UHGV virus genome: UHGV-0078047
DNA: 11,736 bases
Direction: 5' to 3' (one strand)
Source: a virus
Shown: one piece after another, positions 1,254-6,308 of the stretch
How positions within the stretch are numbered: the first letter of the stretch is position 1
Layout of the letters: each line of letters starts with the position of its first letter
The notes under the pieces: model-generated
What the model was told of the DNA's origin: nothing
The model's input: the letters and a program-made list of their open reading frames with translations, nothing else
The model's database searches: none
Position numbers and translations under genes: made by a program

Positions 1254-1559
1254 TCAATCGTAATAAGCTGGAATTGATTTTCCGCGTTGTTTCTGGCGGC
1301 CTGAGCAAGTCACACCCATTTCACTGCGTGGCTTGCGGTAGTAAATACGGTTCTGTTTACGCTCGACTTCTTCTGCCTTCTTGCAGCGAAGGCTTCCGAG
1401 TGATGCTGCTTTATCTGCTCTGACGCAACCAGAGAGCTTTAGCGCAATTTTTCGCGCCAGTCGCTGCTCTTGCATTGCCTGTTCACGTTGAGCCTGTCTG
1501 CGTGCTCTGCGGCGATTTCTGGCGTTATCGTCAGCCAGATATGTAATGACTACTGCCAT
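1254..1559 (-). CDS. N: N-type transcription antitermination protein, 101 aa
   Basis: Arginine-rich N-terminal motif NARNRRRARRQAQ; C-terminal ...YYRKPRSEMGVTCSGRQKQRGKSIP resembles the lambda and phage 21 N C-termini as I recall them. GGAGG RBS upstream; located immediately downstream of the pL/nutL region. Confidence 0.85.
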   Translation of the reverse strand: MAVVITYLADDNARNRRRARRQAQREQAMQEQRLARKIALKLSGCVRADKAASLGSLRCKKAEEVERKQNRIYYRKPRSEMGVTCSGRQKQRGKSIPAYYD

Positions 1560-2558: not shown

Positions 2559-2624
2559 AGTTAAGACATCTTAAATAAACTTGACTTAAGATTCCTTTAG
2601 TGGATAATTTAAGTGTTCTTTAAT
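2559..2624. promoter_or_regulatory. OR3-OR2-OR1 operators with PR (rightward) and PRM (leftward)
   Basis: Three 18-bp sites each matching ANTNAAGNNNNCTTNANT at all fixed positions: AGTTAAGACATCTTAAAT (2559..2576), ACTTAAGATTCCTTTAGT (2584..2601), ATTTAAGTGTTCTTTAAT (2607..2624). PR -35 TTGACT (2581..2586) and -10 GATAAT (2603..2608). Confidence 0.8.
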
Positions 2625-2932: not shown

Positions 2933-3226
2933 ATGGTTCGTGCAAACAAACGCAACGAGGCTCTAAGAATCGAGAGTGCGTTGCTTAACAAAATCGCAAT
3001 GCTTGGAACTGAGAAGACAGCGGAAGCTGTGGGAGTTGATAAGTCGCAGATCAGCAGGTGGAAGAGGGATTGGATTCCAAAGTTCTCAATGCTGCTTGCT
3101 GTTCTTGAATGGGGTGTCGTTGACGACGACATGGCTCGATTGGCACGACAAGTTGCTTCGATTCTCACCAATAAAAAACGCCCGGCGGCAACCGAGCGTT
3201 CTGAACAAATCCAGATGGAATTCTGA
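2933..3226 (+). CDS. cII: CII transcriptional activator, lambda type, 97 aa
   Basis: [51 protein letters not shown]... matches lambda CII from memory. The track ORF 2846..3226 is longer; the true start is the internal ATG at 2933, which gives 97 aa. Confidence 0.9.
2942..2955 (-). promoter_or_regulatory. CII-binding site of PRE (TTGC-N6-TTGC)
   Basis: Plus strand GCAAACAAACGCAA is TTGCGTTTGTTTGC on the minus strand, a direct TTGC repeat with 6-bp spacing inside the first codons of cII, as in lambda PRE. Confidence 0.6.
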
Positions 3227-3258: not shown

Positions 3259-3405
3259 ATGACAAAACAACTCAGTCCTTACCAGGACAAAATTCACAAA
3301 CACATACTACGTGATCGCTTCCTGTCCAGCTTCAAGCAGCCTGGTCGATTCCGGGCTGAGTTGGAAAAAGTGAAGCTGATGCAGAAGGAGAAAGGTCATG
3401 ATTAA
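3259..3405 (+). CDS. possible small protein, 48 aa, between cII and the O-like gene
   Basis: Hand translation [56 protein letters not shown] at 3249..3253. Its ATG and RBS sit where lambda has the O start. 3' end overlaps the O-like ATG by 8 nt. Confidence 0.35.
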
Positions 3406-4258
3406 TCTTGCAACCGTAACACATTTAAGGCCTTCACAACGGCCTGTGGAGCGTCGTGTGGCAGAAGTTGAAGATGGTTATACCCGTCTTGCAAATGCCC
3501 TGTATGAAGAGCTTATCGGCGCAGATTTAACGAAAAATCAGAGCAAGGTTGCCCACGCCATATGCCGTAAAACATACGGCTACGGTAAAAAGATGGATCG
3601 CATCTCTGATAGTCAGTTAGCTCAAATTACCAGGCTGCCAAGACAGAAGGTAAACAAGGCCAAGAATGAGCTTATCGCGATGAAGGTTATCCTTCGCGAA
3701 GGCCAGCAAATCGGGCCTAACAAGAACATCGAAGAATGGAAAATCGAAGGGTGTCACTACTCTGGTGATAATGTCACTGCATTGGTGACAAAAAGTGTCA
3801 CCAAAACGGTGACAGCGCTGTCACCAAAACAGGGACACACAAAAGAAACTATTACAAAAGAAAAAAGAAATAATAAAAACACTATGTCCGAAAGTGTTCG
3901 GACGGAGTGTGAAAAATCACCTGACCGTCACGAAGAAACCGACAAGGCATTCGAGGAAATATTCTGGTGTGCAGGCATGCGGAAAGCCGGGAAGAAAAAC
4001 GCAGCTACGGCATTCAGAACACAGTTCAGGGAATGGCGTAAAACTACCAAGGGTACGGCAAGCGAGTTTGCCACGATGCTGGCAGAAGACATCGCATGCA
4101 GGAATGGTAAGCAGTTCGGATTCGACAGGTTGTTACCATCGAGCTACCTGAACGGTCAGCGCTGGAACGACGAAAAGCCAGAAACCATTCAACCACAATC
4201 TAAACCATCATCCGCAATCACCGTATCGAAAACTGGCTACGTGTTTTTCGACAGGTGA
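3398..4258 (+). CDS. O: replication initiator, lambda O-like N-terminal domain with divergent C-terminal domain, 286 aa
   Basis: Residues ~25..115 ([14 protein letters not shown]...[11 protein letters not shown]...[16 protein letters not shown]...GPNKNIEEW) align with the lambda O N-terminal domain from memory. Contains the iteron array. C-terminal half not lambda-like. Confidence 0.9.
3751..3885. repeat. origin of replication: inverted-repeat iterons plus AT-rich tract inside the O-like gene
   Basis: Repeated GTCAC...GTGAC palindromic units, including TGTCACTGCATTGGTGACA (3772..3790), GGTGACAAAAAGTGTCACC (3784..3802) and GGTGACAGCGCTGTCACC (3808..3825), followed by an A/T-rich stretch at 3841..3885. 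Same layout as ori-lambda. Confidence 0.6.
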
Positions 4259-4261
4259 ACC

Positions 4262-4369
4262 ATGAAATCAAAAATCAAATCGCTACTGGTCGCTGGTTAT
4301 AACCACGGCTGGTTAAGTATTTCGTTTGTCGATTTCTGGTTTAAAAATCTCAATCTGAGGGAATCATGA
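4262..4369 (+). CDS. possible small hydrophobic peptide, 35 aa, translationally coupled to the primase/helicase gene
   Basis: Hand translation MKSKIKSLLVAGYNHGWLSISFVDFWFKNLNLRES. AGGTGA RBS at 4253..4258; its stop overlaps the primase ATG as ATGA (4366..4369). Confidence 0.3.
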   Translation: MKSKIKSLLVAGYNHGWLSISFVDFWFKNLNLRES

Positions 4370-6246
4370 CGCCAAGTGAACTTAGCGACCTGCTTTGGGC
4401 GCAGGTTGACAGGGTGGCTCCGCACCTGTTGCCGAACGGCAAGAAAGAGGGGCATGAGTGGGTTGCCGGTAACGTCAACGGTGACAAGGGAAACAGCCTT
4501 AAGGTCAACCTTAGCGGCAAGAAAAAATGGGCTGATTTCGCTGAGGGAGACGGCGGTGACATGCTTGATTTGTGGATGGCATGTCGAGGAATTAACCTGC
4601 ATCAGGCTATGCAGGAAGCGAAAGCATTTCTCGGTATCAAGGATGACGATCACCATTTCGATGCCAAACGTGAGAAGAAATTCTCCAGACCTGATCGCAA
4701 GAAAATCGCCCGCTACGTTACCAGAACAGAATCCCATCTTGAGTACCTGCAATCGCGTGGCATATCGCCAGAAGTCGTAAAGCGCTACGAGGTTGTCAGC
4801 GGCAAGGTGTGGAATGGAGAACGAGAACTGGATGCTCTGGTGCTTCCGTACAAACGCGATGGTGAGTTGTTGCAGGTCAAGCGAATCAGCACTGAGCGCC
4901 CGGACGGGAAGAAAGTCATTATGGCAGAAGGTGATTGCGAACCTTGTCTGTTCGGATGGCAGGCTCTGGACGCTGGCGTGAGGGCGGTTGTGCTTTGCGA
5001 AGGCGAAATTGATTGTATGAGCTATGCGCAATACGGCATCTCGGCGTTATCCGTGCCGTTTGGTGGCGGGAAAGGTGCTAAGCAACAGTGGATTGAGTTT
5101 GAGTATCACAACCTCGACAGGTTTGAGGAGATATTCATCTCGATGGACGTTGATGATGTTGGTCGTGAAGCCGCAAGGGAAATCGCAAGCCGACTCGGTG
5201 AACATCGTTGCCGTCTTGTTACTCTGCCGTACAAAGACATCAACGAATGCCTGATGAACGGTGTTACCGAGGATGAAATCTGGCAGTACATCGGCACGGC
5301 ATCCTACTTCGATCCTGAAGAACTCTACAGTGCGCGAGAGTTTTACCAGGACACTATCAACGCTTTCTACGGCAAGCAGCAGTATCTGTTTAATCCACCG
5401 TGGGAATCTCTGGCAGATAAATTCCAGTTCCGTGAGGCAGAGTTGACGCTGGTCAATGGTGTGAACGGTCACGGAAAAACGGAGGTTGTCGGGCATATGG
5501 CACTTGAGGCAATGCGTCAGGGTGTGAAGACGTGCATCGCGTCACTTGAGCTGAAGCCAGGCATTCTCCTTAAGCGACTTACCCGTCAGGCAACGTGCTG
5601 CAAGATGCCGCCAGTGCTGGAAATTGACTCTGCATTTAAATTTTATGACGAAAGACTTTGGGTGTTTGGCCTGACCGGAACGGCGAAAGCCGACAGGCTG
5701 ATCGAAATATTCGACTACGCTCGCCGCCGATACGGTATCCAGTTATTCATCATCGACAGCCTGATGAAATGTGGCATAGGCGACGATGACTATAACGGGC
5801 AGAAGGCGTTTGTTGACTCGATTTGCGACTTCAAAAACAAAACAAACTCCCACGTCATTCTCGTTACTCACTCGCGAAAAGGAGACAGCGAAGAAAAACC
5901 AACCGGGAAAATGGACGTAAAAGGCTCTGGAGCGATAACAGACCTGACAGACAACCTTTTCATCATCTGGCGTAACAAGGCTCGCGAGAGAGCGTTACAG
6001 AGAGTTCAGAGTGGTGAAAAGATGTCAGAGAAGGACGAACAGCTACTGGCATCTCCGGCATCTGTTTTGATGCTTGAAAAACAACGTAACGGCGAAGGTT
6101 GGGAGGGTGGTGTCCCGTTGTTCCTTGACGAGCAATCGCACCAGTTCCTGCAACTTGAATCAGGATCGCCATATAGCTACATCGCCAATATGCCGAAATC
6201 GGAATATGACGAGGCGTGGCGACAGGAAAACGTGACGGAGTATTAA
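4366..6246 (+). CDS. bifunctional DNA primase/helicase (Toprim domain plus RecA-fold helicase), 626 aa
   Basis: Toprim signatures VLCEGEIDCMSY and MDVDD; Walker A NGVNGHGKTE; Walker B-like LFIIDSLMK. N-terminal region looks like a cysteine-free analog of a primase zinc-binding domain. Occupies the position of lambda P. Confidence 0.9.
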   Translation: MTPSELSDLLWAQVDRVAPHLLPNGKKEGHEWVAGNVNGDKGNSLKVNLSGKKKWADFAEGDGGDMLDLWMACRGINLHQAMQEAKAFLGIKDDDHHFDAKREKKFSRPDRKKIARYVTRTESHLEYLQSRGISPEVVKRYEVVSGKVWNGERELDALVLPYKRDGELLQVKRISTERPDGKKVIMAEGDCEPCLFGWQALDAGVRAVVLCEGEIDCMSYAQYGISALSVPFGGGKGAKQQWIEFEYHNLDRFEEIFISMDVDDVGREAAREIASRLGEHRCRLVTLPYKDINECLMNGVTEDEIWQYIGTASYFDPEELYSAREFYQDTINAFYGKQQYLFNPPWESLADKFQFREAELTLVNGVNGHGKTEVVGHMALEAMRQGVKTCIASLELKPGILLKRLTRQATCCKMPPVLEIDSAFKFYDERLWVFGLTGTAKADRLIEIFDYARRRYGIQLFIIDSLMKCGIGDDDYNGQKAFVDSICDFKNKTNSHVILVTHSRKGDSEEKPTGKMDVKGSGAITDLTDNLFIIWRNKARERALQRVQSGEKMSEKDEQLLASPASVLMLEKQRNGEGWEGGVPLFLDEQSHQFLQLESGSPYSYIANMPKSEYDEAWRQENVTEY

Positions 6247-6275: not shown

Positions 6276-6308
6276 AGGCCTGCTGGTAATCGCAGGCCTT
6301 TTTATTTG
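6276..6308 (+). terminator. intrinsic terminator after the replication genes (tR2-like position)
   Basis: Perfect 8-bp stem AGGCCTGC (6276..6283) / GCAGGCCT (6292..6299), 8-nt loop, then TTTTTATTT. Confidence 0.7.

Follow-up and report, generated by a model that had tools for sequence, protein, structure and literature searches.

A lambda O-like initiator followed by a T7 gp4-like primase-helicase in a lambdoid prophage, and a short initiator tail that co-varies with the enzyme

Replication modules that combine an O-like origin binder with a primase-helicase are known from phages ES18 and epsilon34 and from the Anderson typing phages. In the epsilon34 report (PMC2629481), gp50 is presented as a lambda O N-terminal domain on an ES18-type remainder, encoded beside a putative helicase, and a survey of Shiga toxin (Stx) phages lists a type with HTH_36 and a primase (PMC8951638). 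Here we analyze the replication module of UHGV virus genome UHGV-0078047, a stretch of 11,736 nucleotides referred to as the window. Judged by its sequence, this module is of the already known ES18/epsilon34/mEp043 type: an initiator with the same C-terminus as in ES18, a small open reading frame (ORF) and a primase-helicase follow one another in the same order and at high identity. On balance, we favor a reading in which the initiator, bound to iterons, would use its extreme C-terminal tail to recruit a self-loading primase-helicase and thereby bypass host DnaB, DnaC and DnaG. A first-pass annotation had already described a lambda O-like initiator paired with a primase-helicase instead of P; its observation was confirmed, and its interpretation, in which the C-terminal half of the initiator might be the adaptor for the enzyme, was partly supported. 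The genes of the module are:

3398..4258, + strand: initiator gene, 286 aa, with a lambda O-like N-terminus and a non-lambda C-terminus (ORF, Pfam, NCBIfam and BLASTP)

4262..4369, + strand: conserved 35-aa ORF, phrog_21848, beginning 4 nt past the initiator stop codon and overlapping the start codon of the primase-helicase gene

4366..6246, + strand: bifunctional primase-helicase, 626 aa (Pfam, PHROG, NCBIfam and PDB matches, residue mapping and AlphaFold)

Domain annotation, which the first-pass annotation had proposed for both large proteins, returned Phage_rep_O for the initiator, and Toprim_2 together with AAA_25/DnaB_C for the 626-aa protein. In the latter, Toprim_2 covers aa 209–296 (E = 3e-12) and AAA_25/DnaB_C aa 355–594, and among proteins of known structure the closest matches are T7 gp4 (E = 2.7e-23) and Twinkle. 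The domains of the enzyme are:

aa 1–95: zinc-ribbon-like domain

aa ~110–320: RNA-polymerase/TOPRIM domain

aa ~345–600: SF4 helicase domain (DnaB/T7 gp4-type)

Alignment with T7 gp4, like the Pfam matches, agreed with the earlier description of a Toprim primase fused to a Walker A/B helicase. The basic primase residues of T7 gp4 (K122, R124 and K128) correspond to K172, R178 and K182 of the window protein, and its TOPRIM acidic residues (E157, D207, D209 and D237) to E212, D261, D263 and D291, all identical. Identity also holds for the helicase residues K318, E343, D424, H465, R504 and R522 (K371, E395, D464, H502, R536 and R574 in the window), and T7 S319 is replaced by T372. The features expected of an SF4 helicase, namely Walker A and B, the catalytic glutamate, the sensor histidine and the arginine finger, are all present. 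Replacement of the arginine finger by lysine (in 'DVKGSG') was considered and rejected, since T7 R522 aligns with the invariant R574. The 626-aa protein is predicted to form a hexameric ring, to unwind DNA in the 5′–3′ direction and to synthesize primers.

That an intact T7 gp4-like primase-helicase, and not P, follows the initiator makes it reasonable to suppose that replication may proceed independently of P, DnaB, DnaC and DnaG, which is plausible on the evidence of the sequences. No P-like or DnaC-like family was found among the window ORFs that were scanned, which are part of all its ORFs, and the place that a P-like loader takes downstream of a lambda O-type initiator is held by the 35-aa ORF and the primase-helicase, as the idea of an enzyme in place of P would have it. 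It is very improbable that the module still needs host DnaB, with the phage enzyme acting as an accessory primase or translocase. Although a phage without its own polymerase has to connect with the replisome of the host, in which DnaB is normally the organizing element, and such a dependence is compatible with the experimental record to date, the Walker A and B motifs, catalytic glutamate, sensor histidine and arginine finger are intact, no DnaB loader was detected in the module or in those window ORFs that were scanned, and phage helicases that replace DnaB are known, both from established knowledge (P4 alpha, T7 gp4) and from the literature (P22 gp12, cited in PMC8022706).

The N-terminal domain of the enzyme has no recognizable zinc-binding site of the Cys4 or CHC2 kind. 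The positions of T7 C17, C20 and C39 are taken by A, V and I, only one cysteine lies within aa 1–100, and no Cys/His ligand set is conserved across 56 homologues (38–85% identity). The loss of these ligands had been overlooked in the first-pass annotation. One explanation for it is that the protein is a helicase only, its primase half being inactive as in human Twinkle, and that host DnaG does the priming; the absence of the four zinc ligands from the window protein and their lack of conservation in the 56 homologues would fit, as would the name 'twinkle protein' given to relatives in the JGI annotation. We regard this as improbable, however, because the acidic residues E212, D261, D263 and D291 and the basic equivalents of T7 K122, R124 and K128 are conserved; among the 56 homologues, K172, E212, D261 and D263 are invariant and D291 nearly so. 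Moreover, the zinc-ribbon fold has been kept, whereas a domain without activity should have degenerated. AlphaFold modeled aa 1–330 with a pLDDT of 93, the N-terminal ~95 residues exceeding 90 and adopting the fold of a DnaG-type zinc-binding domain, and the best Foldseek matches were the zinc-binding and polymerase domains of Aquifex DnaG, the T7 gp4 primase and the DnaG zinc-binding domain 1d0q. The structural residues of the zinc-ribbon domain rank among the most conserved of the family. Within this zinc-less domain (4366–4650), Cys or His occurs at positions 33, 48 and 56 in 21, 38 and 12 of the 56 family members, respectively, and these residues look like relics of an ancestral zinc site.

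The primase-helicase gene of some relatives is interrupted. Alleles of Stx2 phages (Min27, 24B, F403 and others; IMG/VR loci L047 and L053) contain an in-frame 341-aa intein with Hint and LAGLIDADG domains, placed between K371 and T372 of Walker A (GHGK|ACPLNE...THN|TEVV). It starts with Ala, not Cys, and its insertion point corresponds to window position 5476/5477. In the Min27 record (L090 2501–5413) the intein-bearing gene is annotated as 'P' plus 'ORF31'.

The N-terminal part of the initiator is lambda O-like and the origin lies inside the gene, as had been noted from the sequence at first sight. The relevant features are:

3455..3739, + strand: N-terminal origin-binding domain, aa 20–114, Phage_rep_O (PF04492)

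3752–3770, 3772–3790, 3796–3814 and 3819–3837, no strand assigned: origin iterons, four ~19-bp near-palindromes TGTCAC-N6-GGTGACA (repeat and pattern search)

3839–3878, no strand assigned: A/T-rich stretch, the presumed unwinding element (sequence)

3879–3892 / 3897–3910, no strand assigned: inverted repeat 3′ of the A/T-rich stretch (repeat search)

Residues 20–114 match PF04492 Phage_rep_O with E = 1.1e-37 and 128.8 bits (cut-off 28.7), and the protein matches TIGR01610 phage_O_Nterm with E = 1.7e-30 and 105.3 bits (threshold 45.5); in BLASTP, lambda O is 52% identical over aa 18–157. Iterons, A/T-rich run and palindrome all fall within 3752–3910, so that the origin is located inside the initiator gene as in lambda O-type modules. 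The iterons are spaced by 20, 24 and 23 bp. Allowing up to 2 mismatches, their pattern is matched 9 times, compared with 0.2 matches expected by chance, and none of 200 shuffled sequences reached 9. Eight of the nine matches are the four near-palindromic sites read on both strands. The ninth is a fifth, iteron-like site with 2 mismatches (GGTAACGTCAACGGTGACA, 4468–4486, + strand) within the primase-helicase gene, which could have arisen by chance. The iterons retain the central AAAAC of those of lambda and have different arms, and thus origin specificity differs from that of lambda.

In contrast, the C-terminal half of the initiator is unlike that of lambda O. BLASTP gave no alignment with lambda O past aa 157, and Pfam has no family for this half. 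The PHROG families of the initiator C-terminus (33384, 270, 9474 and 9327) include none of those of the lambda O C-terminus (277, 2357, 391, 2514 and others), hhalign, comparing the profiles of both C-terminal families, gave a probability of 0.3%, and a structure search with the initiator C-domain did not return lambda O among the top 50 viral-protein matches. Homology of this region to lambda O was therefore rejected. Thus, on the two points most critical to the first-pass annotation, the enzyme keeps the catalytic residues that were checked, and homology of the initiator C-terminus to that of lambda O is not detectable. AlphaFold modeled aa 157–286 as a four-helix domain (aa 178–252, pLDDT ~85) followed by a low-confidence tail. 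These two parts behave differently in comparisons among relatives, and the first of them is:

3929..4171, + strand: helical C-domain, aa ~178–258, with the motif AFExFWxAGMxK...FGFDKLxPxxYLNxxRWxD

An exhaustive search found the helical domain in 371 clusters at 50% identity, nearly always at the C-terminus of proteins of 250–350 aa and joined to N-terminal partners that include HTH_36, DUF1376, Phage_rep_O and DnaD_N. It is strongly conserved, with residues invariant across the family, and by these comparisons appears to be a widespread un-named initiator module. Since the lambda O C-terminal half contacts P, according to established knowledge, the helical domain might itself be the specific adaptor and the tail a hitch-hiking spacer. 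The domain is well folded in the model as well as strongly conserved, and each copy at least 55% identical to that of the window is followed by the 35-aa ORF and the primase-helicase (33 of 33 in IMG/VR, comprising 32 loci plus L099). We nevertheless consider this explanation unlikely. None of 50 informative IMG/VR loci with copies at most 48% identical has a primase-helicase next to the initiator; the partners there are DnaC-like (10), DnaB-like (5) and lambda P-like (4), and the rest, including proteins of 130–200 aa, could not be assigned. Conversely, the helical domain is missing from the initiators that precede some enzymes with N-terminal regions 97%, 77% and 61–68% identical to that of the window (for instance at L182, L224, L174, L197–199, L203–205, L207, L211, L218 and L226). 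At full length, the identities at such loci are 94%, 79% and ~60–71%, and the initiators carry unrelated central domains in front of enzymes that are 94%, 79%, 71% and ~60% identical. Finally, the tail is under purifying selection across such domain swaps, as described below. Thus, of the two parts of the C-terminal region that might be the adaptor, the extreme tail, which co-varies with the primase-helicase clade, is the better candidate, whereas the ~80-aa helical domain pairs with many partners and is replaceable, even in front of primase-helicase genes 79–97% identical to that of the window.

Two observations concern other members of these families. At Vibrio-type loci (L084, L105, L121, L133–L143 and others), a protein of 130–210 aa without a Pfam family follows the initiator; for the sole one tested, L084 4344–4865 from Vibrio phage D65, the PHROG match, to 'P-like helicase loader', is weak (E = 2e-4), and these proteins may perhaps be an unrecognized loader family. 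In Min27, the 'O' protein as annotated (L090 1615–2390) has 222 aa and ends before the helical domain and tail, which run on to 2390 in another frame, pointing to a frameshift or a sequencing error in the record.

The segment of the initiator that follows the identity of the enzyme is its extreme C-terminus:

4199..4255, + strand: initiator C-terminal tail, aa 268–286, proposed docking peptide for the primase-helicase

Strict co-variation with the primase-helicase clade is seen for the last ~13–30 residues of the initiator, and initiators without the helical domain all end in the tail typical of their clade. Tails of clade A have the form [IV]x[VI]SxxG[YL]VF.. (for example IQVSQSGYVFIN), and those of clade B (Fraca-like) the form W[YF]....DGSxE[VI]FINQAAI[DE]R..RG, which occurs on three initiator architectures; a Pseudomonas clade of enzymes at ~40% identity has tails of its own. 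When the window is compared with L182 and L224, whose central domain is a different one, DNA homology starts at 4202–4205, that is, at the first tail codons. Likewise, clade B initiators with different central domains are 57–73% identical over 30-aa tails, compared with 9–28% over the 40 aa before them. The tail codons differ from those of five clade A relatives by 3–6 synonymous and 0 non-synonymous changes, and the corresponding ratios in clade B are 6:0, 9:2 and 10:3 (L164, L226 and L207). This synonymous excess argues that selection is on the peptide and not on the DNA, and so points to purifying selection on the tail peptide. Modeled alone, the tail has a pLDDT of ~52 in AlphaFold, a low confidence that would be expected of a docking peptide. 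The most likely role of the tail, given this pattern, would be recruitment of the primase-helicase.

Tails of other kinds are found with other partners. Initiators that carry the helical domain and have a DnaC-like partner (L086, L093–L095, L100 and L160) end in an acidic and aromatic tail, ...GTANDDFADFLKDDE (...DDFADFLKDDE), and those located before proteins of ~190 aa end in ...TIDLDSSD[FY].DV. Initiator tails thus appear to be specific to each partner class.

The composition of the module is not limited to the two genes first described, the initiator and the primase-helicase, as the 35-aa gene between them had gone unnoticed. Its product matches phrog_21848 with E = 4e-26 and shares 46–49% identity and 16 invariant residues with its counterparts in Fraca and CharmingMan, two divergent modules. 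The ORF precedes almost all primase-helicase genes that are at least 58% identical to that of the window and is absent from the ~40% clade; ES18 gp60 and epsilon34 gene 51 are the annotated ORFs between the two large genes. The tail, the 35-aa ORF and the primase-helicase gene are contiguous, the ORF goes with both tail types (clades A and B), and a weak promoter-like match lies at 4248–4275, all of which would be compatible with a different role for the tail, such as binding of the 35-aa protein or of a host factor (protease tag, clamp or SSB), or with signals in its DNA for translation or transcription of the downstream genes. We give such a role little credence because the peptide is constant despite synonymous changes, indicating selection on the protein, because clade-specific tails also occur in the ~40% (Pseudomonas) clade, which lacks the 35-aa ORF, and because the tail type switches with the primase-helicase clade within the same hosts.

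In several loci, a 491-bp insertion separates the 35-aa ORF from the primase-helicase gene (L005 4501–4995, and also L015, L018, L035, L072, L219 and L222), the modules being otherwise near-identical. It encodes a free-standing HNH endonuclease (NUMOD4 plus HNH_3), which is probably a homing endonuclease.

At the level of sequence it is established what the parts are, that they are intact, and that tail and enzyme co-vary. For the way in which these parts may act together, we infer the following sequence of events. The initiator, the 35-aa protein and the primase-helicase would be transcribed from pR. The initiator would assemble on the four iterons and open the A/T-rich DNA, with pR transcription helping as in lambda. 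Its flexible tail, tethered to the helical domain, would then recruit the phage ring helicase-primase, which would self-load, in the manner of T7 gp4, onto the opened strand, and would unwind and prime for host DNA polymerase III, so that host DnaB, DnaC and DnaG would not be required. The helical domain would be a generic, exchangeable module, possibly for oligomerization or DNA handling, and not the determinant of specificity.

Several considerations weigh against recruitment through the tail and host independence. The missing zinc ligands make primase activity of the enzyme less than certain, as the zinc-binding domain is required for templated priming in T7 gp4 and DnaG. The evidence for the tail as recruiter is comparative, the IMG/VR samples behind it are redundant and cover few host groups, and the co-inheritance of adjacent elements (tail, 35-aa gene and primase-helicase) may in part reflect linkage; the tail could bind the 35-aa protein or a host factor instead. 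Coupling of the phage helicase-primase to host polymerase III is an inferred step, and the searchable literature yielded no functional study of the module.

Exchange between phages has left junctions at two places in the initiator gene. Within the origin, homology to modules with other N-domains begins at 3825 (ES18-type) and at 3874 (Stx-phage-type), which indicates that the iterons travel with the N-domain; initiators with the window-type C-terminus carry Phage_rep_O, HTH_36 or other N-domains. The second junction, for swaps of the central domain, is located at the tail, at 4202. Junctions in the origin and at the tail divide the module into what appear from these alignments to be three exchange units: the N-domain with the iterons, the A/T-rich DNA with the helical domain, and the tail with the 35-aa gene and the primase-helicase. 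We tentatively suggest, as a possibility somewhat short of an even chance, that the tail is part of a portable 'docking code', in which a short tail on a flexible linker, beside an exchangeable helical domain, specifies the class of helicase-delivery partner, whether a primase-helicase clade, a loader of the DnaC-like or P-like kind, or another. One possible docking site for the tail is the zinc-less zinc-ribbon domain, and docking there would explain why this domain stands out as the most conserved non-catalytic part of the enzyme. The co-variation of tail and partner was not found described in the literature and offers a testable lead.

The window corresponds to the early-right region of a lambdoid prophage. 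The features around the module are:

73–131, − strand: lambda cIII thermoregulator RNA (Rfam, 88.5 bits), the sole Rfam match in the window

1254–1559, − strand: ORF at the position of lambda N, assigned by position only, with no family match

1908–2558, − strand: cI (Pfam), with cro and then cII next in order

2581..2608, + strand: pR-like promoter ahead of cro-cII-O (10 of 12 consensus positions matched in a scan)

3175–3202, − strand: strong terminator-like hairpin at the end of cII, at the position of the lambda oop RNA terminator

3259–3405, + strand: DUF2740 ORF, 48 aa, between cII and the initiator gene and overlapping the initiator start

6276..6299, + strand: terminator-like hairpin with a T-run directly 3′ of the primase-helicase gene (consensus scan, pattern match only)

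The pR-like promoter is the presumed source of transcription across the origin. After cII, the order is the DUF2740 ORF, the initiator gene (3398–4258), the 35-aa ORF (4262–4369) and the gene for the 626-aa enzyme (4366–6246), and 3′ of the latter are genes for NinB, an MT-A70 methyltransferase, NinX, NinG, Q and a holin-like ORF. Rfam gave no match inside the replication module. The DUF2740 family is labeled 'tail protein' in PHROG and RefSeq, an implausible label for an ORF positioned in the early operon. Over the whole window, the best phage matches are Sf101 and mEp043, with mosaic coverage only.

The module itself is common. Phages mEp043 and Sf101 are 98.5% identical in DNA over 3398–6246 (2849 bp); from 3825 to 6242 the identity is ~88% for ES18, epsilon34 and g341c, and from 3874 onwards it is 96–99% for Stx2 phages of the 24B/Min27 type. 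The module is present in 298 of 5426 complete E. coli genomes (~5%). Salmonella phages of the P22-like and ES18-like kinds carry it too, as do Stx2-converting phages of the 24B/Min27 type; the toxin output of Stx phages is tied to the efficiency of their replication. If replication is indeed independent of DnaB, DnaC and DnaG, the module would be a compact natural case in which a temperate phage fits a helicase-primase of T7 type to the polymerase III replisome of its host. If the rule relating tail to partner is true, it would predict the pairing of initiators with helicases or loaders in mosaic phage genomes and could aid the design of orthogonal replicons.

Gene order and proteins of the ES18/epsilon34/mEp043/Sf101-type module are the same as those of the window. 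However, the N-domain and iterons of ES18 and epsilon34 are of lambda type (94% identity to lambda O), whereas those of the window are of mEp043 type (52%). In lambda O-P, as in the window, an O N-domain is encoded by a gene that contains the origin, with four iterons, an A/T-rich stretch and a palindrome, and is located downstream of cII under pR; in the window, however, the C-terminal half is non-homologous, P is absent and the partner is a helicase-primase and not a DnaB loader. The 24B/Min27 phages (candidate Eru5) have the same helical domain, tail, 35-aa ORF and primase-helicase as the window but differ in having an HTH_36 N-domain instead of Phage_rep_O and a 341-aa intein in the primase-helicase.

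The enzyme shares with T7 gp4 and Twinkle a zinc-binding-like domain, an RNA polymerase/TOPRIM domain, a linker and a RecA-type helicase domain, with conservation of the catalytic residues that were checked, although identity is ~25% and the zinc ligands of the window protein are lost, as they are in human Twinkle. Unlike T7 gp4, it belongs to a temperate phage that encodes no DNA polymerase, and it presumably depends on an origin-binding initiator for its recruitment. The same logic as in the window is described for P22 gene 18/gene 12 (PMC8022706) and for the Stx-phage types Eru2/Eru3 (PMC8044961), where an O-like origin binder is combined with a phage DnaB-like SF4 helicase that replaces host DnaB. 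In contrast to the window enzyme, the P22 and Eru2/Eru3 helicases have no primase domain and use host DnaG, and the initiator C-termini also differ. In satellite phage P4, origin recognition, primase and helicase are likewise supplied by the element, through the alpha protein, and polymerase III by the host. P4 alpha is, however, non-homologous to the window proteins and unites the three functions in a single polypeptide whose primase differs and whose helicase has the SF3 fold.

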